From sequence record MH133207.1: DNA of 64,000 nucleotides; one strand, 5' to 3'. Every line of letters starts with the position of its first letter. The stretch's first letter is position 1. The notes beneath the pieces are model-generated. The model did not search any database and was not told where the DNA came from. It saw only the letters and a program-made list of their open reading frames with translations. Below, piece after piece: positions 1,749-21,052 of the stretch. The position numbers were made by a program, and so were the translations under genes. This DNA is from Acinetobacter phage vB_AbaM_B9.

Positions 1749-2105
1749 ATGAACAACATGATCAATGTACCAGTTGAATTTGTAATTGATGCCCTACAAG
1801 CTCGATATGATGATGTGAAGGATAAATGGAGCAATGATGCAAGTGAAGCTCTATGGGAACAAGCTCTACAACTCGTTGAAGAATGCGGATTAGGCAGTGA
1901 CATTACAAGCTCTAGCGCTTATGTAGACAATTACCTTATTAACGGTGAATTTGTTAGTAAAGAAAGTGACTTTGATGAGTGGACAAAAGATTATAAAGAA
2001 TCTTATGATTTTTCTGATAGTGTAGAGGTCGAGGCTGCTTGGAATGAATATTGTCAAGACAATGCTTTAATCTATAATGATGAGTATGCTTGTTTATCAT
2101 TCTAA
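1749..2105 (+). CDS. hypothetical acidic protein
   Basis: ORF track, 118 aa, D/E-rich. Common among phage early proteins. Confidence 0.5.
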   Translation: MNNMINVPVEFVIDALQARYDDVKDKWSNDASEALWEQALQLVEECGLGSDITSSSAYVDNYLINGEFVSKESDFDEWTKDYKESYDFSDSVEVEAAWNEYCQDNALIYNDEYACLSF

Positions 2106-2185
2106 CACTTAAACAAACGTGCATTGTGTTTAATAAACAACATGGTGCACAATATTAAATGATTTTTTATTTGAGGTATTTACAA

Positions 2186-2362
2186 ATGTATAAAGTAGGC
2201 GATGAAGTTATTTATAAAGGTGTACCAAAAGATTTTAGACGATTAGATCACAAGGCTATTATTTTGCGAAAAACCTTTGAACCAAACTACTTCGTAATAA
2301 AACTATTGAGTGGTGCAGAACTATTGGTTTCTTCTGATTTTCTGTCTTTAGATTTAAACTGA
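2186..2362 (+). CDS. hypothetical small protein
   Basis: ORF 2159..2362 trimmed to ATG 2186 (MYKVGDEV) after a GAGG RBS. Confidence 0.4.
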   Translation: MYKVGDEVIYKGVPKDFRRLDHKAIILRKTFEPNYFVIKLLSGAELLVSSDFLSLDLN

Positions 2363-2391
2363 TTTAAATTAATTTTTCGGAGTAACATAAC

Positions 2392-2535
2392 ATGAAACAT
2401 TATCAGATTATTCATAACGGATTAGTTTATTGTGTAGATGTTTATGCATCATCTAAAAGAGAAGCTATTGCACAATATAGGCAGCAATGGAATCTTGAAG
2501 GAAAACGTATTAACTTACAATGTTGGGAGGCTTAA
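2392..2535 (+). CDS. hypothetical 47-aa protein (not in ORF track)
   Basis: ATG at 2392 after a GGAG RBS, encoding MKHYQIIHNGLVYCVDVY.... The stop TAA at 2533 overlaps the GGGAGG RBS of the next gene. Confidence 0.35.
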   Translation: MKHYQIIHNGLVYCVDVYASSKREAIAQYRQQWNLEGKRINLQCWEA

Positions 2536-2538
2536 ATA

Positions 2539-2736
2539 ATGACATATTCACTAAAAAACATGAACAAATGTGATGTGACTGCAATTGAAGTTATTTATAA
2601 AGGCGGTAAACGGCGTATATTCAATCTTAAAAATAAAGTTTATCGCTATGATGCTTTAGACTTACAAACAAAGTTAGAGAACTATGACAATGTATTTCGT
2701 GTAAATTGTCATACAACGTTAAACAAGTGTTTTTAA
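2539..2736 (+). CDS. hypothetical small early protein
   Basis: ORF track. GGGAGG RBS 5 nt upstream. Confidence 0.45.
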   Translation: MTYSLKNMNKCDVTAIEVIYKGGKRRIFNLKNKVYRYDALDLQTKLENYDNVFRVNCHTTLNKCF

Positions 2737-2751
2737 GGAGGATTTAAACCA

Positions 2752-2958
2752 ATGTTAATCATTAACCGCTACAAATGCCCTATATCAGGGAAAACCTCAA
2801 TATGTGCCCATAAGGTCAATAATATGAAAGTGATTAAGAGTTATAAACCATGTGATGAGTCATTCATTGAAATGTTAGCTCAAGGGCATAAACAATTTCT
2901 ATTGTGTGACGTTCCTAGTTATAGTATGTTAAGTAAAATTAATATTGTGAGAAATTAA
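2752..2958 (+). CDS. hypothetical small early protein
   Basis: ORF track. AAGGAGG RBS upstream. Confidence 0.45.
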   Translation: MLIINRYKCPISGKTSICAHKVNNMKVIKSYKPCDESFIEMLAQGHKQFLLCDVPSYSMLSKINIVRN

Positions 2959-2960
2959 CT

Positions 2961-3185
2961 ATGTTATATCAAATACAAGTTAAAGCTGATAATCAGCGTG
3001 TTTACAGAAAACTGTCAATTAAAATGCGTTCAATTGAAGCATTGAAGAAAGATTTAGAAGCTTATGTGATTATGTATGGTGAAGGTAATCAGATTAATCA
3101 TCACACTGTTTCAGCTCAAATTATAGATCAAAACGGTAATGTTGTATTTGAAAGATTATCCAACGCTACAATCAATAGAGTTTAA
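2961..3185 (+). CDS. hypothetical small early protein
   Basis: ORF track. Tightly packed after the previous gene. Confidence 0.45.
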   Translation: MLYQIQVKADNQRVYRKLSIKMRSIEALKKDLEAYVIMYGEGNQINHHTVSAQIIDQNGNVVFERLSNATINRV

Positions 3186-3194
3186 TCGGAGTAT

Positions 3195-3413
3195 ATGAAA
3201 ATGATTATGAACGATAGTTTGACAGCTTTAAAAGGTTGCTGCGATAAAAACGGTGGAGAATTATCCGAAGTTCTAGTATTAGTTAATGGTCGTCACTTTG
3301 TTGTAGGACTAGACTCATTCACTGATTGTATGAATGAAACAACATATTATGTCGATAGTAGATACAATATCAGAATGCAAGATATAGAAAAATGGTTTTT
3401 ATTGAGAGCATAA
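3195..3413 (+). CDS. hypothetical small early protein
   Basis: ORF track. CGGAG RBS. Followed by an intrinsic terminator. Confidence 0.45.
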   Translation: MKMIMNDSLTALKGCCDKNGGELSEVLVLVNGRHFVVGLDSFTDCMNETTYYVDSRYNIRMQDIEKWFLLRA

Positions 3414-3426
3414 TGACTCACCTTGC

Positions 3427-3449
3427 AGCGCCATTGAAGGCGCTTTTTT
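3427..3449 (+). terminator. intrinsic terminator
   Basis: AGCGCC-ATTGAA-GGCGCT stem-loop followed by TTTTTT. Confidence 0.6.
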
Positions 3450-3651: not shown

Positions 3652-3960
3652 ATGAAAAACTTATTTATCGCTTTAATCGTTACATTGCTTGCAATCTTAA
3701 ATGTAGCTTGTGTAGATTCAAAAAATGAACAAGCTGAAGTAGTAGTAGTGGATACGGTTAAAATGTTTAATGATGCGATTGCTAATAAAGATTCTAAATC
3801 TGCTTTAGTTGCAATCGAGTTAGATGTAAAAAATGACGGTGAAGCTATCCACAAATGTAAAAAAGATACTATCGCTAAAATGTCGAAATTCATTGATAGT
3901 GACGACTATGTAGTGACATATGAAGCATTGAATGCTCAGTGTGCATTTGCTACGATGTAA
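3652..3960 (+). CDS. secreted or lipoprotein-like small protein
   Basis: N-terminal signal peptide MKNLFIALIVTLLAILNVAC, then a hydrophilic domain. GGAG RBS. Confidence 0.5.
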   Translation: MKNLFIALIVTLLAILNVACVDSKNEQAEVVVVDTVKMFNDAIANKDSKSALVAIELDVKNDGEAIHKCKKDTIAKMSKFIDSDDYVVTYEALNAQCAFATM

Positions 3961-4004
3961 TTAAAGCAAACAAACAAGCTAAGCAAGCTTAAAGGAAACA
4001 CAGC

Positions 4005-4190
4005 ATGGTAAATCAGAAACAGTTAGCTATCGAATTGAACGAAGCTTATGTAGAGTATTACAATGCTTTCTTAACAGTAGAACGTTATGCAGCATATAAA
4101 GGATGGTCCTTATTCTTTGCTAAACAAGTGATTAAATCAGGTCGAAAGATCAATCATAATCAAGAGTTATTAAAAGCTTTATATTCTTAA
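4005..4190 (+). CDS. hypothetical small protein
   Basis: ORF track, 61 aa. Confidence 0.4.
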   Translation: MVNQKQLAIELNEAYVEYYNAFLTVERYAAYKGWSLFFAKQVIKSGRKINHNQELLKALYS

Positions 4191-4268
4191 TCTGTTTATA
4201 TACATGTGTATTTAGCTTAAACACTAGATGCACTCAATATATAAACAAACACTTAAAGGATAATCACT

Positions 4269-4439
4269 ATGTACAGTTTGATCATTATGTTCTTTTTAAA
4301 TAACGGTATGAAATATGATACTACAATTGTTAAATCTAATATGTCTAAACAATCTTGTTTAACGTTATCATCACAACTTATGGAAAACCTGCAAGGCTCT
4401 AACTACGAGCTTAAATGTGTACCGACTGAGGACGAATAA
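4269..4439 (+). CDS. hypothetical 56-aa protein (not in ORF track)
   Basis: ATG at 4269 after an AAAGGATAA RBS. Open to TAA at 4437. A terminator follows. Confidence 0.35.
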   Translation: MYSLIIMFFLNNGMKYDTTIVKSNMSKQSCLTLSSQLMENLQGSNYELKCVPTEDE

Positions 4440-4456
4440 AAGATTAACAATACAAT

Positions 4457-4479
4457 GCCCGCTATATGCGGGCTTTTTT
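4457..4479 (+). terminator. intrinsic terminator
   Basis: GCCCGC-TATAT-GCGGGC stem-loop followed by TTTTTT. Confidence 0.65.
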
Positions 4480-4920
4480 ACGTCTATAGAAAACATATCC
4501 TAGAATACTAATAATATCCTTCATTATAACGCCGTATAGCAGCTTTATAACAACGTTATAGACTATTAAGCTAGTGTAGTACCTTAACGTATTAAAGTGT
4601 CTGTAATGAGCTTAGAATGTGATTTAAAGCTATGTTTAAAATTTTCTATATAGAATTTAATTAATATTGTTTCTTTAATCTTATATCAAAATTAAATATC
4701 AAATCTTTTTAGCTTAAGGGTATGTGTTAAGAAGTTTGTTTGTGTGTTTGTAAATAAAGATATAAGAAATAATTTAAATCAAGTGTGGTGAATCTTAGAA
4801 GCTTTGTAGGTATATACCAGTGATGGTGAAAATAAAAGTGTTAATCTTTAAAGCGATATTATAGGATATTTTATAGGAAAAACCGATCGAAAAGACCTAG
4901 CCATCGCTTGGTATTAAACA

Positions 4921-5150
4921 ATAGAACATATAAATAGTCAAATTTCCAAACCCACTTCCACAACACCCCAATACATAAATAACAGAATTTATAATCAGAG
5001 TATTTAACAAATAACACCGCACCAATTTCAAAACAATCCCTACAACATACACCACCAACACATCAAAGATACTCTCTTCAGAGATACTTTCTCCAAAACA
5101 CCCACCCTACCCTAATTCCAAAAACACACTTCCAAAAATTTTTCGGAAAT
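4921..5150 (+). other. G-depleted C/A-rich tract; candidate Rho-utilisation region
   Basis: About 230 bp with about 9 G on the plus strand, far below the local G content. No ORF on either strand. Lies where the plus and minus transcription units converge. Confidence 0.35.
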
Positions 5151-5194
5151 TATTTTAGTGAAAATTATCCACCTTTGAATTTATTTAAATGTGA

Positions 5195-5551
5195 TCATAT
5201 CTCTATCCTGTGGTTAGTTAGACTTGCACCTTTTGAGATAACATCCTCTGAATTTTTACGATGATCTTCATATTGGTTGCCACCCTCAAGCACTTCCGTT
5301 CTTTCACGAGCTAGATATAGATCAACTTCTTCAAGCAATGCCTCATAGCGTCTTTTTGCCTCATCACCCAAAACAGAGGCTTCTTTTTGAATTTCCCAAG
5401 CCTTGTTATAATCCTTTTTGCTATGTACAGGCTCATCTGGATCATCCACAAAGCAATTGCGGAAATCTTCAAATCGGTTGATTGACTCCATATGGACCTG
5501 AATCCAATTAATAAACATCATCCCAATCTTCGCTATCTCTTGATTACTCAT
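5195..5551 (-). CDS. hypothetical protein
   Basis: ORF track, 118 aa. Last gene of the leftward block. Confidence 0.5.
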   Translation of the reverse strand: MSNQEIAKIGMMFINWIQVHMESINRFEDFRNCFVDDPDEPVHSKKDYNKAWEIQKEASVLGDEAKRRYEALLEEVDLYLARERTEVLEGGNQYEDHRKNSEDVISKGASLTNHRIEI

Positions 5552-5891
5552 TTGTATCCACCTTGAGCGCTTGCTCTAAATCCACAGTTAATATCTTGTG
5601 AATATCACTATTTGTTTCTCCAAGATAAAAATCATCAAATTCATCTCCTACATAATCTATTACCTCATTAATCTTTTCTTGCATAATTTCTATTTTCTTT
5701 TGCAGCTCCTCCACTCTCGCTTGTCGTGACTGCCGACCTGCTTGAAAGTAATATTCATAATCTACTTGGTTTTTCTCTATATCCCACACAACAAACTCTG
5801 CCTGCCTGTTTTTACCAAGCTTGATTAATTCTTTAACTAATATATCTTTGTGTTGTTGCAATGCTTCTTCAAACTTGCCTACCTCACTCAT
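5544..5891 (-). CDS. hypothetical coiled-coil protein
   Basis: ORF track, 115 aa. Heptad-like charged sequence. Confidence 0.5.
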   Translation of the reverse strand: MSEVGKFEEALQQHKDILVKELIKLGKNRQAEFVVWDIEKNQVDYEYYFQAGRQSRQARVEELQKKIEIMQEKINEVIDYVGDEFDDFYLGETNSDIHKILTVDLEQALKVDTNE

Positions 5892-6105
5892 AGCTGTCTC
5901 CTTTGTATTCTGGTCTCTCTTCCAACGAATCTTTCCAATTACCTCTGTATGGTTTTATTCCAGTTGTGCTAAAACTTGTAGCCCAAGAATTACTCAACGG
6001 TGTAGGTTTAGTAAATACTTTAACACTGCCATCTTGACACGTTGCTATAGCGACAACCCAATCAGGAATTCCAGACCAATCATATTTACTCATTCCCTTC
6101 TCCAA
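5884..6105 (-). CDS. hypothetical protein
   Basis: ORF track, 73 aa. Overlaps its neighbours by a few nt. Confidence 0.4.
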   Translation of the reverse strand: MEKGMSKYDWSGIPDWVVAIATCQDGSVKVFTKPTPLSNSWATSFSTTGIKPYRGNWKDSLEERPEYKGDSYE

Positions 6106-6457
6106 TAAACTCCTTCAATTCGTCACATACCCAAACTTCAATCCAATATTGTTTTTCAGGAGTAAAGTCTTTCCAATCAAAGTGTTCTCGTTTTAATGTC
6201 ACCGTAGTAACTTTAACATCAGTCTCAGATTCAACAAAACCCACTTCGTCATACTTAAAATATTCATCTGTTCTGCTTTGTACATATCTTTCATACTTAC
6301 GTACAGCTTCAGGTATTCCGTACTTACGAACAAGTACACTAGCTAAGAATTCAAGTCTCTCATCTACCATACGGTGTGCTTTTCGCATCTCTTGATATTC
6401 GTAGAAGAATGAAGTTGGTGTTACTTGTATATCTTTAGCCCAAAAATACTTATTCAC
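6086..6457 (-). CDS. hypothetical protein
   Basis: ORF track, 123 aa. Confidence 0.5.
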   Translation of the reverse strand: MNKYFWAKDIQVTPTSFFYEYQEMRKAHRMVDERLEFLASVLVRKYGIPEAVRKYERYVQSRTDEYFKYDEVGFVESETDVKVTTVTLKREHFDWKDFTPEKQYWIEVWVCDELKEFIGEGNE

Positions 6458-11079: not shown

Positions 11080-11121
11080 CAGACAATAATAAACGCACTA
11101 TCAACCAAAGTCAATAGTGCG
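11080..11121 (-). terminator. intrinsic terminator (minus strand)
   Basis: CGCACTA/TAGTGCG 7-bp stem with 13-nt loop. On the minus strand it is followed by TTTATTATTG. Lies downstream of the spanin genes. Confidence 0.45.
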
Positions 11122-11138
11122 ATATGATTAATTTGTAA

Positions 11139-11684
11139 TTATTCTGTATTATATTTTTCTTCTAATTGCTTCCATGCGTCTTGCAGAGTAGACACGGACT
11201 GTCTGAGCTTATCCCCATCCTCTGCCATGTCGAGATATCGTTCTGTGCAGCTTCCAAACGACTCTTGTAACCATTGTAAGTCTCTCCTTGATACACTGAC
11301 GGAGCTTTCGGAATTACTACTTTGATTGGCACTACTCCCACTTCCGACTTTACTGATTTGTTCGCGCAACCGCTTAACATCAGCGTTGAGACTATTCCTA
11401 GAAACAGTAATTTTATCGATTTCACTTTGATGTTTCTCCTGTAAAATTGTATACTCTTTATTTAATTCATTAAGTTTCTTAATTGAATTATTTTGCTCTT
11501 CAATCAGTTTGGAAGTCATATCATTTTTAAGAGAAACATAAGCTACATCTTTATCAACTAGCTTTTTCTCATATTTATTTTTAAGACTTTCATTCTGCAT
11601 TAACAAACCAAGTAATCCAATAAATAAAATAACGATTAAGAATTCCTTCCAAAATCTAATAATATAAGAAATAGCTAGTGTCAT
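11139..11684 (-). CDS. i-spanin (Rz-like inner-membrane spanin)
   Basis: N-terminal TM (FLIVILFIGLLGLLM), then a long coiled-coil periplasmic domain. Contains the embedded o-spanin gene in another frame. Confidence 0.6.
   Translation of the reverse strand: MTLAISYIIRFWKEFLIVILFIGLLGLLMQNESLKNKYEKKLVDKDVAYVSLKNDMTSKLIEEQNNSIKKLNELNKEYTILQEKHQSEIDKITVSRNSLNADVKRLREQISKVGSGSSANQSSNSESSVSVSRRDLQWLQESFGSCTERYLDMAEDGDKLRQSVSTLQDAWKQLEEKYNTE
11162..11425 (-). CDS. o-spanin (Rz1-like outer-membrane lipoprotein), embedded in the i-spanin gene
   Basis: Signal peptide with lipobox LMLSGC. Pro-rich mature part with C-terminal Cys residues. Lies entirely inside 11139..11684 in the +1 frame. Confidence 0.55.
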   Translation of the reverse strand: MKSIKLLFLGIVSTLMLSGCANKSVKSEVGVVPIKVVIPKAPSVYQGETYNGYKSRLEAAQNDISTWQRMGISSDSPCLLCKTHGSN

Positions 11685-11685
11685 A

Positions 11686-12459
11686 TTACTTCTTCCGTTT
11701 CTTCAGTTCGTTTTGAATCATCTTCACATCTTCTTTATATAAGGATAATTCAGATTCAAGTTCTTCATCTGTGTATTGTGATAAGTCAAGAGGTTTATCT
11801 AATTCACTCATACGTTCCTTAATCTTCTCATTTTCACGATGTTGTAGGCGATCTCTAATTTCATCAGAAGAGAAGTAAAACTCAACACCCTGTAAAACCT
11901 GATCAATTTCTCTTTCAGATAAGAAATGTTTATATGTATTAGTAACAAATTTTTCATTTTCTTCTGATGTATGTTCAACACGCTTACGAACGTTCGATGT
12001 TGTTCCACCATTACCTACTTGGAATTCGTGAATCATCATGGTTGCATGATCACCAACAATATACTTATCTGCTGATGATAAAAAGAATGCACTAGCACAA
12101 GAGTCAGCATTAGCATGAAGAATATGAACATGTTGTGCAGGACACATACTCTTCCAACCCAACAACATATTTAATGAATCTACAAATCCACCATATGATG
12201 CAATGTTCCACCAAATTTCATCTTGCTCTGTAGCTGTTGATAATAATGCAATTACTTCACTGTAACAATCTGGAGAATCAAAATCATCCGTAATGTTTAC
12301 AATGTATTTAAAACCTCCGTTAAAAACACCATGAATTGTTGGATTTGATTTTTGACCATCATAAATACCTAAACGTGTAGGTCGTGGTGATGGAGGTGTA
12401 AAATCAGGAACAACTGATCGTGGTGCTTCATGTGAATTTAAATGTCTTCCTAAAATCAT
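11686..12459 (-). CDS. ClpP/SppA-fold serine peptidase with C-terminal coiled-coil (scaffold-like) tail
   Basis: GG loop ASYGG, Ser motif ADSCAS...SSADKYIV and His motif MMIHEF match ClpP (S14)/S49 peptidases. C-terminal 60 aa are charged coiled coil. In an operon with the spanins. Confidence 0.5.
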   Translation of the reverse strand: MILGRHLNSHEAPRSVVPDFTPPSPRPTRLGIYDGQKSNPTIHGVFNGGFKYIVNITDDFDSPDCYSEVIALLSTATEQDEIWWNIASYGGFVDSLNMLLGWKSMCPAQHVHILHANADSCASAFFLSSADKYIVGDHATMMIHEFQVGNGGTTSNVRKRVEHTSEENEKFVTNTYKHFLSEREIDQVLQGVEFYFSSDEIRDRLQHRENEKIKERMSELDKPLDLSQYTDEELESELSLYKEDVKMIQNELKKRKK

Positions 12460-12710
12460 AATCCCTCCAAATCTTCTTCTAAAATTACATAATAACTTTC
12501 ACCTTCAAGTCGATTAAAACTATCAAGAAAATCATTTAACTCATCAACATATGCCCAATACGTTTCTGCACAATCACGATTATTGTCAATTTCTTTTTCA
12601 AGAGCATCAATTTTCTTAAAGACCTCTGAATACTCCTGATAAGGAATCAAATATGTGTGACCATCATCGTCTTCATATGTTGCATAAATTTTATTTGGGT
12701 TGATATTCAT
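12456..12710 (-). CDS. hypothetical acidic protein
   Basis: ORF track, 84 aa. ATGA overlap. Confidence 0.45.
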   Translation of the reverse strand: MNINPNKIYATYEDDDGHTYLIPYQEYSEVFKKIDALEKEIDNNRDCAETYWAYVDELNDFLDSFNRLEGESYYVILEEDLEGL

Positions 12711-12933
12711 TGTCTAAACTCTCCTTTAATTTTGGATGATTAACTAACTTATTGAACACCTCAACTGGAACTTCAAACCAATTATAACCATCCTCATAAA
12801 CCACAGTTCCGTATTCTGTATAATAAAGTTTAGGATCAGGAGGAGGTTTATTTTCCTCCATCTCAATTATTTTATCTCGAAGAATTGTTAGTTCTCTAAT
12901 TAACTCTTCTTGGTTAATTGTACCCGTATGCAA
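12691..12933 (-). CDS. hypothetical protein
   Basis: ORF track, 80 aa. Confidence 0.45.
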   Translation of the reverse strand: MHTGTINQEELIRELTILRDKIIEMEENKPPPDPKLYYTEYGTVVYEDGYNWFEVPVEVFNKLVNHPKLKESLDNEYQPK

Positions 12934-12949
12934 AAACTCACCTCAAAGT

Positions 12950-13729
12950 CTACATCAAACCTTCTTTAGTGAAAACTTTAATCCATTCACGACATTCTTT
13001 ACTACGAACAATGTCACCAATTTCATCAAAGTTAATCAACCCCATAGTCTCTTGAAGTTTTGCATATTTAGAATACAAATCAATAGCAACCTTCAAACCA
13101 CTATCGTGTTTTAAAGCACTTTGACGAACATCACCTTCAATAACAAGAGTGCAGCCATTTTGACGAGTGAGTAAGCTCATAATCTCTTCAACTGTACAAT
13201 CTTCTGCCTCAGTAACAATTACAGCAGTTGTATCATCAAAGCTTCGACCTTTTACAGTTTCCATTGGTACAAACTCAATGTCACCATTTTCAATCGCTAA
13301 TAACGTTGCAGCTCGACCAATACGTTTAAACAGAACATCAATGACTGGTGCTAACCACACAGAGGACTTCTGTTCGATCGTTCCGGCGAAATAACCTAAA
13401 GATTTACTATTTGACACAGCAGGTCGAACAAGAACAAGTTTCTTAATTCTTCCAGTTCTATACCAATCAGCAAATGTTGCAGTTGGGATATAAGTTTTAG
13501 ATGTTCCAGCATAACCAGTTGCCAAAATACAACGTTTATCCTCAAGTAGCTCCATGTATTTACGTTGCTTTGGATTCATTGGTAATATTGGATTATTCTT
13601 TACAAAATCATCTCGTTCCTGTTTATGTTTTTCGCTTAAATACTGTTGTTTCTCACCGATCTCTTGTCTATAGTTTCGGTTGGAAACACCACGACCATCT
13701 TGTAATTGTCTATTACGAGCTTTACCCAA
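12950..13729 (-). CDS. phoH: PhoH-like ATPase
   Basis: Walker A GYAGTSKTY, Walker B-like VIVTEAED, and overall PhoH-like architecture. 259 aa. Confidence 0.65.
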   Translation of the reverse strand: MGKARNRQLQDGRGVSNRNYRQEIGEKQQYLSEKHKQERDDFVKNNPILPMNPKQRKYMELLEDKRCILATGYAGTSKTYIPTATFADWYRTGRIKKLVLVRPAVSNSKSLGYFAGTIEQKSSVWLAPVIDVLFKRIGRAATLLAIENGDIEFVPMETVKGRSFDDTTAVIVTEAEDCTVEEIMSLLTRQNGCTLVIEGDVRQSALKHDSGLKVAIDLYSKYAKLQETMGLINFDEIGDIVRSKECREWIKVFTKEGLM

Positions 13730-14440: not shown

Positions 14441-14498
14441 GCAAAATAACAATATTTAACAATGATAGTAACTATATTGTTATTTTTTGTTAAAACTA

Positions 14499-14527
14499 TT
14501 GACATTACATCTTGACAAGGTTATAGT
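14499..14527 (+). promoter_or_regulatory. plus-strand promoter TTGACA-N17-TATAGT
   Basis: -35 at 14499-14504 and -10 at 14522-14527. Divergent from the minus-strand promoter. A second TTGACA lies 12 nt downstream of the first. Confidence 0.45.
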
Positions 14528-14558
14528 GCAATGACAGGGTTGGGTTGGAAATGTTATT

Positions 14559-14632
14559 ATGAGTGAAACGAAATAATAATTCCTTAATGTCAATCTTTAG
14601 ATTGCTACAATATAGTGAATGAGTGAAACGAA
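14559..14632. repeat. direct repeat ATGAGTGAAACGAA x2 (60 bp apart)
   Basis: Copies at 14559-14572 and 14619-14632, inside the divergent promoter region. Confidence 0.5.
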
Positions 14633-14772
14633 TGAAATATATTGGGATATAAGAATAATATTATAAATATATTATTAAAAATAATCCTTACAATATACTA
14701 TATGTGTTCTATGCGTAGCATAATATATTATATAATAATATTGTAAATAATACTTTGGAGAATTAAAAAAAT

Positions 14773-19606: not shown

Positions 19607-21052
19607 ATGGCTAAGTACAAAAGAGGGAGTTTGGCGTTAGCTAGACAAGTCTTTAACACCCCTCAATTAATTGTAGAATCTGATCTACAACGAATCTCTC
19701 AATACCTAGTAGATCGCGCAAACGGTGTTGAAGTCAACGTTATTAATACAAATGATGTTGAGCAAAAAACAGAAAAACAAGAATTACAGTCTCTTCTTGA
19801 ATTAGCATCTTACGAGACAGAAGAAGAAAAACAACGTTATCATCGTAGATTAAATATTACTAATGATGGTAAACGAGGTAATCTTTTCATTGAAGGTGCT
19901 TTAGTTGCGAAAGCTGGTGAGATCGATGCTGATTGCATGGAGTTAACTTCCTATGAAAAGCTTCTATCAACTTTCCAGATGCAAGTCAAGGAAGGTGTTG
20001 AAGAATTAGTTCTACATGTAGACTCAGGCGGTGGCGCTGCTGCAACGTGTTTTGAGATGGCTAACGAAGTCAAGACTCTAGCTAATGAGAATAATATCAA
20101 GATTTATGCTTACATTGACGGAATGGCAGCTAGTGCAGCTTACGCTTGGACATCTATTGCAGATGAGATTATATCTCGACCAGATAGTGAAGCAGGCTCT
20201 ATTGGTGTAGTTGTGCAACTTATCAATAATTCAAAAATGCTTTCTGATATTGGTATTACAAGAAAATTTATTACTTACGGTGATAATAAAGTTCCTTTCG
20301 ATGATCAAGGAGAGTTTACAGATAAATTCTTAGAATCGATTCAGAAGAAGGTTAATAAAACAGGTTTAGAATTTAGCAATTTTGTTGCTAAAAACCGAAA
20401 CATGAATGTTGAAGATGTAATTGCGCTACAAGCAGAAATCTTTACTTCAGAAGATGCTTTGTCTTTAGGTTTGGTTGATAAGATCATGACTCGCTCAGAG
20501 TTTTTTGATAAGTATCTTCCATCAGCCAAAGCTAGTTCAAATAATCAATATTATTTACAACAAGAGGACATTATGTCAAAAGAAAAAGATGTAACTGTTG
20601 ACACACAATTGAGTGTTGAGCAATTACAAGAACAATTAACAAACTTAAATGTAGAAAAAGAACAACTAACAACTCAAGTTGATACATTGACTCAACAATT
20701 AGCTGACTTTCAATCTACAAAAGAACAGTTACAAACACTACAGGCAAATTATGATGCTTTGTTAAGTGAAAAAGAAGCTTCAGATAAAGCTGTTAAATTA
20801 GCAACTCGTAAAGCAGCAATTGAAGATGCTATTGGTAAAGATAATGAACAAGTAGCTTCACTATTGTCTTCTACTGAACAATTAGAAGATGCAGCTTTTG
20901 ATGTAGTTGTTCAAAGCTTATCTACACAACAAGAGTTAAAGCAAGAAAAATTAAAAGAGAAAGGTAACGAAGGGACTCAAAGTCCATCACAACTTAGTAT
21001 TGAAGAACAACTTGCTGCAACAGCAAAAAAAATGACAAAGCAGTCTGCTTAA
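19607..21052 (+). CDS. prohead protease (S49/SppA-like) fused to scaffolding domain
   Basis: HVDSGGG...IDGMAASAAYAW...GSIGVV matches the S49 Ser peptidase core. C-terminal 170 aa form Q/E/L-rich coiled coil. Confidence 0.65.
   Translation: MAKYKRGSLALARQVFNTPQLIVESDLQRISQYLVDRANGVEVNVINTNDVEQKTEKQELQSLLELASYETEEEKQRYHRRLNITNDGKRGNLFIEGALVAKAGEIDADCMELTSYEKLLSTFQMQVKEGVEELVLHVDSGGGAAATCFEMANEVKTLANENNIKIYAYIDGMAASAAYAWTSIADEIISRPDSEAGSIGVVVQLINNSKMLSDIGITRKFITYGDNKVPFDDQGEFTDKFLESIQKKVNKTGLEFSNFVAKNRNMNVEDVIALQAEIFTSEDALSLGLVDKIMTRSEFFDKYLPSAKASSNNQYYLQQEDIMSKEKDVTVDTQLSVEQLQEQLTNLNVEKEQLTTQVDTLTQQLADFQSTKEQLQTLQANYDALLSEKEASDKAVKLATRKAAIEDAIGKDNEQVASLLSSTEQLEDAAFDVVVQSLSTQQELKQEKLKEKGNEGTQSPSQLSIEEQLAATAKKMTKQSA

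Follow-up and report, generated by a model that had tools for sequence, protein, structure and literature searches.

A ClpP-like protease gene of Acinetobacter phage vB_AbaM_B9: membership in a phage family encoded outside the head module, and a core exchanged among B9-like phages on a nearly constant C-terminal tail

Within a 64,000-nucleotide stretch of the Acinetobacter phage vB_AbaM_B9 genome (MH133207.1; hereafter the window), a leftward open reading frame (ORF) encodes a 257-amino-acid (aa) protein that already stands in the B9 record as an "ATP-dependent protease subunit." By sequence, this protein belongs to a large phage-specific ClpP-like family encoded outside the head module (PHROG 1827/5410/1684), itself already catalogued, and it is probably a catalytically competent serine peptidase of the ClpP fold with a Ser120-His144-Glu193 triad. 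What is new in the present analysis is that the catalytic core has been swapped among B9-like phages while the last 36 residues have stayed nearly invariant. The ORF has an ATG start with GGAGG 6-7 nucleotides (nt) upstream, its start overlaps the stop of an upstream small ORF as ATGA, and its stop codon lies 1 nt ahead of the start of an i-spanin gene. The gene and the parts of its product are as follows.

11686..12459 (-): coding sequence of the ClpP-like serine peptidase, 257 aa plus stop, product 100% identical to the vB_AbaM_B9 "ATP-dependent protease subunit"
12340..12459 (-): N-terminal residues 1-40, predicted disordered (predicted local distance difference test score, pLDDT, 51-68), variable or absent in relatives
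11869..12339 (-): predicted catalytic ClpP-fold core, residues 41-197, from the AlphaFold2 (AF2) model and alignments
12187-12192 (-): G90-G91
12100-12102 (-): Ser120
12028-12030 (-): His144
11881-11883 (-): Glu193
11689..11868 (-): C-terminal charged helical tail, residues 198-257, with predicted helices 198-221 and 231-256 and a KKRKK end
11689..11796 (-): last 36 residues, K222-K257, almost unchanged among six phages with core identities of only 40-51%; proposed docking module

The first-pass annotation, made from the DNA sequence alone, had read the gene as lying outside the head module and coding for another ClpP/SppA-fold peptidase with a charged helical tail; Pfam, PHROG and the AF2 model agree with that prediction. 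A profile search for a peptidase fold, a check set beforehand, placed the protein above the cut-off for Pfam CLP_protease (PF00574; MEROPS family S14), with no match to PF01343; the CLP_protease match spans residues 69-178 (E=2.3e-5, 24.8 bits against a gathering cut-off of 20.2). Residues 51-216 align with profile positions 24-188 of 202 in phrog_1827, "ATP-dependent protease" (E=5.9e-36), and the NCBIfam model NF045542, Clp_rel_HeadMat, also matches (E=1.8e-8). The AF2 model, computed from an alignment of 143 diverse relatives, has a mean pLDDT of 91.2, and in a Foldseek search of the PDB its top 50 matches were all ClpP, with E values of about 1e-9 to 1e-10. Superposition on these ClpPs gave target-normalized template modeling scores of 0.64-0.77, with a best root-mean-square deviation of about 2.0-2.5 Å over about 157 residues, at 12-20% sequence identity. 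The peptidase fold is thus far beyond chance.

The three motifs originally picked out as a peptidase core are all present and hold the residues in question: ASYGG contains the invariant G90-G91 loop, ADSCAS contains Ser120, and MMIHEF contains His144. In a profile-to-PDB alignment, S120, H144 and E193 coincide with the catalytic Ser, His and Asp, respectively, of solved ClpPs. Only G90, G91, S120, H144 and Y176 are invariant across the 143-sequence alignment, so that the check on catalytic-residue conservation came out in favor of the prediction, with Ser120 and His144 kept in 143/143. Position 193 is acidic in 131 of the 143 (E in 93, D in 38), B9 having the Glu variant, and the triad is retained in all of the swapped core alleles described below. 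Peptidase activity is probable because Ser120, His144 and an acidic residue at 193 have been kept across relatives this diverse.

Outside the active site, the model places a handle-type helix at residues 154-175 of the core and predicts no ClpP-type N-terminal gating hairpin or helix A in residues 1-40, and no helix before the first strand. B9 and Ab3 have about 31 additional N-terminal residues, rich in proline (…PDFTPPSPRPTRLG, 12340-12459 (-)), which the MD-2021a, phiAB441 and TaPaz alleles lack; this extension may be a propeptide or simply allele-specific. The charged C-terminal tail of about 60 aa foreseen at first pass is borne out, with charged residues making up 52% of the last 60 residues vs 19% of the core and with two long predicted helices, 198-221 and 231-256, at pLDDT 95-98. 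In the final helix, L234, L238, Y241, V245, I248 and L252 follow an a/d heptad pattern with 4-3-4-3-4 spacing.

The relatives of B9 are the phages Ab3-TPeters, MD-2021a, phiAB441, Ab5/Ab7, TaPaz, BS46 and Phab24. When five relatives were compared with B9, the flanking spanins were 93-98% identical in amino acid sequence vs only 39-52% for the protease, except in Ab3, where the protease is 97% identical. Nucleotide homology ends at the protease start codon (12457) and resumes at 11798-11958, the junction between core and tail, and a six-way protein alignment gives the same picture, with cores 40-51% identical to B9 and K222-K257 nearly invariant. Entire catalytic cores have been traded among these phages, the tail remaining tied to the phage backbone, and the chimeras are viable. 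This pattern could reflect docking of the tail onto something conserved in these phages or their host, or crossing-over limited by homology. The ClpP-like gene and the PhoH gene upstream of it (together 11686-13729) are divergence hot spots in a backbone that is otherwise 90-98% identical among B9, Ab3, MD-2021a, phiAB441, Ab5 and TaPaz. Additional ORFs are found at the locus in several phages: Ab5 carries endonuclease-like ORFs between PhoH and protease (locus 4967-5512 and 5852-6343), of which the one adjoining the protease gene matches T5orf172 as well as the zinc-finger model, the other just a weak zinc-finger model; K412 has an annotated HNH endonuclease (locus 3871-4914) directly upstream of its protease gene; and MD-2021a has an unassigned 190-aa ORF (locus 4951-5523) between PhoH and protease. 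These inserted endonuclease-like and 190-aa ORFs could drive the local mosaicism.

The window also encodes a canonical S49 protease with a long tail, as the first-pass annotation had recognized, and it served as our comparator.

19607..21052 (+): S49 head-maturation protease with scaffold-like tail, between the portal gene and head-protein genes

The comparator matches PF01343 (E=4e-27) and phrog_53 (E=3e-73) and ends in a long tail rich in Q, E and K. Like the ClpP-like protein, this S49 (SppA/lambda gpC-type) protein falls in the broad ClpP/crotonase fold class and consists of a core followed by a charged helical tail. The two differ in family (PF01343 vs PF00574), in tail length (about 180 aa vs about 50-60 aa) and in the location of the S49 gene between portal and capsid genes. 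The B9 ClpP-like protease has no match to PF01343, its sole S49-related match, to Peptidase_S49_N (E=0.085), falling short of the cut-off. When the two proteases were compared, BLASTP gave E=0.12 with fragmentary matches and no real alignment, and the protease tail showed no similarity to the S49 scaffold tail or to other proteins of the window; a search of the window for a second copy of the tail motif, as a shared targeting peptide, returned nothing below E=0.67. By sequence, then, the ClpP-like protease is not a duplicate or paralog of the S49 protease of the same phage, and we have dropped the paralog reading because BLASTP gave no significant match. Of the repeated architecture described at first pass, the order of core and charged helical tail stands, but the tail is short against one of about 180 aa and has no similarity to it; the duplication of the S49 gene itself fails on the BLASTP result and on the different peptidase families.

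The family to which the B9 protein belongs is large. A profile search of 1.84 billion cluster representatives returned 2,460 proteins at E<=1e-3, of which 1,454 (clusters at 50% identity) reached E<=1e-10; lengths are mostly 200-330 aa, and tblastn against the GenBank phage collection found relatives in 792 records. An IMG/VR scan with patterns from one alignment (A1) gave no confirmed relatives. The phages concerned include T5-like Salmonella and Escherichia phages, Vibrio phages including ICP1, Rheinheimera Barba phages, Pseudomonas KIL-type phages, Certrevirus, Campylobacter phages and one Stenotrophomonas jumbo phage. Among eight homologs from other lineages, five have phrog_1827 as their best PHROG (those of T5-like phages, ICP1, KIL1, Barba and RAS14) and the rest have sister PHROGs, with the CR8 homolog best against phrog_5410 and the K412 homolog best against phrog_1684. 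The predicted viral structures nearest to the B9 model are likewise proteins of this family. Evidence on genomic context comes from individually retrieved GenBank loci, not from a database census; in every lineage inspected, the protease gene lies outside the head module, and separate head proteases are annotated elsewhere, such as the "prohead protease" of BF23 and the "prohead core protein protease" of Certrevirus CB7. The supposed relocation of the gene in B9 does not survive this comparison, as the same non-structural, PhoH-linked context recurs in many distant lineages whose head proteases are differently annotated.

The archetype of PHROG 1827 is the T5-like Clp-like protease (BF23 ORF45; Bas29 SuperGirl bas29_0151), which matches the same PHROG (1.8e-88 vs 5.9e-36 for B9) and is also a stand-alone ClpP-fold protein encoded outside the head module, adjoining lysis genes. 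It differs from the B9 protein in being 199 aa long with almost no C-terminal tail, in its identity of about 29%, and in having the PhoH gene some 30 kb off. Closer in context are the ICP1 "ClpP ATP-dependent protease subunit" (ORF211), KIL1 gp31, Barba5S gp079 and CR8 gp208, which have the same or a related PHROG, PhoH upstream and variable charged tails, together with Alteromonas V22 CDS-147, a structural neighbor of the B9 protease that also has PhoH upstream. These proteins differ from that of B9 in their identity of 27-34%, in tails that range from 7 to 216 aa, and in the extra C-terminal domains that some carry. In the ClpP-like protein of 193E37-1 (locus 4944-5846), residues 184-295 match phrog_1040, "peptidase HslV family," over the C-terminal portion of that profile (E=1e-6), and a tail module may be common to two kinds of self-compartmentalizing phage peptidases. 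The paper on V22 also lists a "proteasome-like" gene (PMC7289586).

Outside the family, the nearest curated relatives are ClpP-related head-maturation proteases of phages, which work without an ATPase. NF045542 matched all 143 family members (best E 7.5e-28) and was the best-scoring curated family for each of them, and the model for ClpP-like prohead protease-major capsid fusions (NF045540) matched 142. Cellular ClpP models matched 126, more weakly (best 3e-14). The B9 protease scores 34.5 bits against NF045542, below its curated cut-off of 120, and no member is shown to reach the curated cut-offs. The B9 gene lies in a leftward non-structural block, away from the portal-to-major-capsid head module that is typical of NF045542, and its product has no scaffold or capsid fusion in a phage that has its own S49 head protease. 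From these profile scores, the family appears to stand beside the ClpP-type capsid proteases as a sister group and not within them, and an ancient link to capsid proteases is plausible. The first-pass description of the gene as capsid-protease-like thus holds at the level of an old family kinship, but not as a duplication within B9.

The protease gene is packed with those for the spanins and PhoH in one leftward unit, whose other features are listed here.

12456..12933 (-): two small ORFs in the PhoH-to-protease interval, 12691..12933 (80 aa) and 12456..12710 (84 aa, phrog_36791)
12950..13729 (-): PhoH-like ATPase, upstream of the protease on the same strand (PF02562, E=3e-39)
11139..11684 (-): Rz-like i-spanin (phrog_312)
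11162..11425 (-): o-spanin embedded in the i-spanin gene (lipobox LSGC)
11094..11121 (-): terminator-like hairpin with a 12-bp stem followed by a T-run, 3' of the spanins, from a consensus scan only
14720..14747 (-): weak sigma-70-like promoter match (TTTACA, 16-nt spacer, TATTAT) in a divergent intergenic region, from a consensus scan

PhoH and the spanins were correctly named at first pass as neighbors, on the evidence of PF02562, phrog_312 and the LSGC lipobox. The stop of the small ORF 12456..12710 is the one that overlaps the protease start. The o-spanin gene (11162-11425 (-)) is out of frame with that of the i-spanin, has a GTG start and matches no PHROG. The hairpin is the likely end of the leftward unit that holds the protease gene, and the promoter match at 14720..14747 is a candidate for its start; promoter-like matches in the divergent region are no more numerous than expected from shuffling. 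On the opposite strand of that region (14450-14770), near-consensus sigma-70-like hexamers (TTGACA, 17-nt spacer, TATAGT) lie at 14499-14527 (+). PADLOC, run on the protease, PhoH and the two small ORFs, gave zero defense-system matches.

With cellular ClpP (E. coli, S. aureus and others; PF00574), the B9 protein shares the common fold (template modeling score about 0.75 and deviation about 2.1 Å), a Ser-His-acid triad, the SxGG loop and the handle helix. It differs in its low identity (the 12-20% given above), in having Glu for Asp in the triad, in its added helical tail of 50-60 aa, and in having no conserved pocket for the IGF loop and no N-terminal gating hairpin. It also falls far short of the NCBIfam ClpP cut-offs (13.1 bits vs 249 for PRK00277 and 13.6 vs 228 for PRK12553). 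At the equivalents of E. coli ClpP Y60, Y62, F82, I90, M92, F112 and L114, a hydrophobic residue is found in 45, 66, 42, 76, 71, 94 and 30 of the 143 relatives, respectively, and the B9 residues are W83, N85, M105, I113, H115, I134 and G136. Because the ClpX/ClpA docking pocket is not conserved and the N-terminal gate is disordered or variable, the "ATP-dependent" label finds no support in the sequence and is probably wrong. In ClpP, the C-terminus ends at the docking face and L189 is part of the docking pocket, so the B9 tail would sit at the face that binds the ATPase. No AAA+ unfoldase is annotated in the genome of the closest relative, a check at the level of annotation in a genome where most ORFs are hypothetical.

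We lean, at slightly better than even confidence, toward a reading in which the B9 protein is a ring-forming accessory protease, independent of ClpX and ClpA, that acts during infection on host or non-capsid phage proteins and docks via its C-terminal helix. The protein would assemble into ClpP-like rings. It would work without canonical ClpX/ClpA docking, as we infer from the lack of conservation in pocket and N-terminal gate and from the tail, which would emerge where a partner ATPase normally binds. Its amphipathic, basic-ended C-terminal helix would dock onto a conserved partner or substrate, and the enzyme would then degrade or process host or non-capsid phage proteins during infection.

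Several points weigh against this reading. The pocket comparison depends on a single E. coli ClpP sequence (in which the numbering of S97, H122 and D171 checks out) and one list of pocket residues, and hmmalign covered only the central part of ClpP; the pocket residues L23, L48, F49 and L189 were unaligned, and Asp171 was placed via the PDB profile alignment instead. Summed pairwise synonymous and non-synonymous differences come to 64:51 in the tail vs 189:191 in the spanin, and although the variable sites of the tail are mostly third codon positions, no extra constraint on the tail relative to the spanin was seen; the tail is conserved at about the level of the backbone, and its constancy may merely mark the place of recombination breakpoints. 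Literature text searches found no biochemical or genetic study of any family member, and the paper on BF23 states that the function of its Clp-like protease is unknown (PMC10644984). The papers on TaPaz, CB7 and the Psa phages have nothing on the ClpP-like protein. Finally, the BF23 homolog (ORF45) was found in purified virions, with 3 peptides at low intensity, in a list that also includes DHFR (PMC10644984).

That detection is among the observations behind a sharper form of the exaptation idea put forward at first pass, in which the protease is a virion-targeted accessory enzyme, carried into the procapsid by its basic C-terminal helix hairpin, and either processes packaged proteins or is co-ejected with the DNA to hit host proteins early. 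The nearest kin of the family are the ClpP-type head-maturation proteases, ORF45 of BF23 is a phrog_1827 homolog, the helix-loop-helix tail with its KKRKK end may resemble the capsid-binding C-termini of scaffolding proteins, and the tail remains constant with the backbone while the core is swapped. The BF23 signal, however, is among the weakest, the DHFR found alongside it is a non-structural enzyme, and the T5-like homolog, at 199 aa, is almost tailless. The KIL3 and KIL5 homologs (gp31, 23.2 kDa) were detected by 6-7 peptides at about 50% coverage (PMC4791379 supplement), in preparations that were not purified on cesium chloride (CsCl) and that also contained PhoH, ligase and other non-structural proteins (PMC4791379); this detection shows expression, not location. 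The gene lies in the head module of no lineage examined, and the B9 tail resembles neither the S49 scaffold tail nor any other protein of the window. We regard a virion role as the chief competing reading, though on the whole an unlikely one.

Less likely still is what the database annotation would mean if taken literally, namely that this is an ATP-dependent Clp subunit, a phage ClpP that takes the place of the host's own ClpP or forms mixed complexes with it, so that host ClpX or ClpA would power a redirected proteolysis. The ClpP fold, handle helix and intact triad are all in keeping with such a role, as is the suggestion of Iyer et al. 2021 that ClpP, patchy in jumbo phages, may be deployed against the host (PMC7824862). 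The equivalents of the docking pocket are nonetheless not conserved, the N-terminal gating region is absent or disordered, cellular ClpP models with cut-offs of 228-249 bits give it about 13 bits, and the C-terminal extension would lie at the docking face, to judge from ClpP structures; an improbable reading, in our judgment.

The recurrent PhoH neighbor raises the question of a two-component machine, with the PhoH ATPase encoded upstream as the working partner of the protease. In at least 8 phage lineages, a PhoH gene precedes that of the protease on the same strand; the two overlap in KIL1 and are separated by 3 nt in Barba5S and by two or three small genes in B9, ICP1, 193E37-1, CR8 and K412, where one of the three intervening genes is the HNH endonuclease, of 1 kb. 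PhoH also adjoins the ClpP-like gene in Alteromonas V22 (PMC7289586), and both proteins were detected in KIL3 and KIL5. Pfam confirmed PhoH in B9, ICP1, 193E37-1, K412 and Ab5; tblastn with the B9 PhoH missed the PhoH genes of ICP1, 193E37-1 and K412, for which Pfam was needed. The alleles of the two genes, however, assort independently in the B9-like phages: B9 PhoH shares 98-99% identity with the MD-2021a and phiAB441 proteins (99% with the latter) but 39% with that of Ab3, whereas the B9 protease is 97% identical to that of Ab3 and 48-52% to those of MD-2021a and phiAB441 (48% for phiAB441). The two genes are about 30 kb apart in T5-like phages, the protease of jumbo phage RAS14 has a ligase and a primase-like gene as its neighbors, and PhoH occurs in 2,396 phage records vs 792 for the protease. 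PhoH has been described as an RNA helicase of the SF1-helicase-like kind rather than an unfoldase (PMC7824862). A longer gene order (ribonucleotide reductase, endolysin, PhoH, protease, ligase) is common to several of these myoviruses, and synteny inherited from a common myovirus ancestor is a live explanation of the adjacency. We consider a functional coupling of the two proteins very improbable.

Two observations concern PhoH itself. In K412, PhoH (locus 2046-3434) is of the PhoH2 type, with a fused PIN domain (PIN_4, E=5e-25; PhoH, E=5e-38). The B9 PhoH (12950-13729 (-)) matches best, in two stretches, to phrog_32482, a PhoH profile of 589 positions, and such a two-stretch match hints at intein-bearing PhoH relatives. 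An intein in PhoH is reported in a Campylobacter phage paper (PMC3322345), and the TaPaz terminase is annotated as intein-containing.

Proximity to lysis genes suggests a further role, in which the protease would process or degrade a lysis regulator or an envelope protein. The B9 gene stops 1 nt before the spanin start and has a terminator in common with the spanins, the T5-like gene lies between spanins and deoxynucleoside monophosphate kinase on one side and holin and endolysin on the other, and an endolysin-type gene precedes PhoH in CR8, ICP1 and 193E37-1. The B9 sequence and model show no evident signal peptide or transmembrane segment, however, no lysis gene is annotated near the protease in KIL1 or Barba5S, and tight gene packing can explain the adjacency, leaving little reason to believe in a link to lysis. 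The decoy role floated at first pass, that of an inactive pseudoprotease, has practically nothing to recommend it, as Ser120, His144 and G90-G91 never vary among the 143 relatives, 131/143 have an acidic residue at 193, and all are kept in the swapped alleles.

Returning to the accessory protease acting on host or non-capsid phage proteins, a bolder version, which we think rather unlikely, would make it a modular effector. In this scheme, a backbone-specific docking helix would bring an exchangeable ClpP-like core to its target, which might be a host complex or the virion, with co-injection in the latter case, and the swapping of the core and, independently, of PhoH would reflect an arms race with host proteins such as defense systems. 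Homing-endonuclease traffic offers a selfish-element alternative to the arms race, because endonuclease-like ORFs in Ab5 and an annotated HNH endonuclease in K412 sit at the protease locus.

In conclusion, the finding of this gene is in itself ordinary, since its product is already in GenBank as the B9 "ATP-dependent protease subunit." Large virulent phages very commonly carry a member of this family, among them the models T5 and ICP1 as well as several therapeutic phages of Acinetobacter; the family keeps a perfect active site and is made during infection, with no function reported. A doubtful "ATP-dependent" label, a swappable core on a fixed tail, and a tendency to travel with the abundant phage gene PhoH all offer handles for experimenters. 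If the effector scheme is true, PHROG 1827 would represent a widespread, unrecognized class of phage counter-host proteases.

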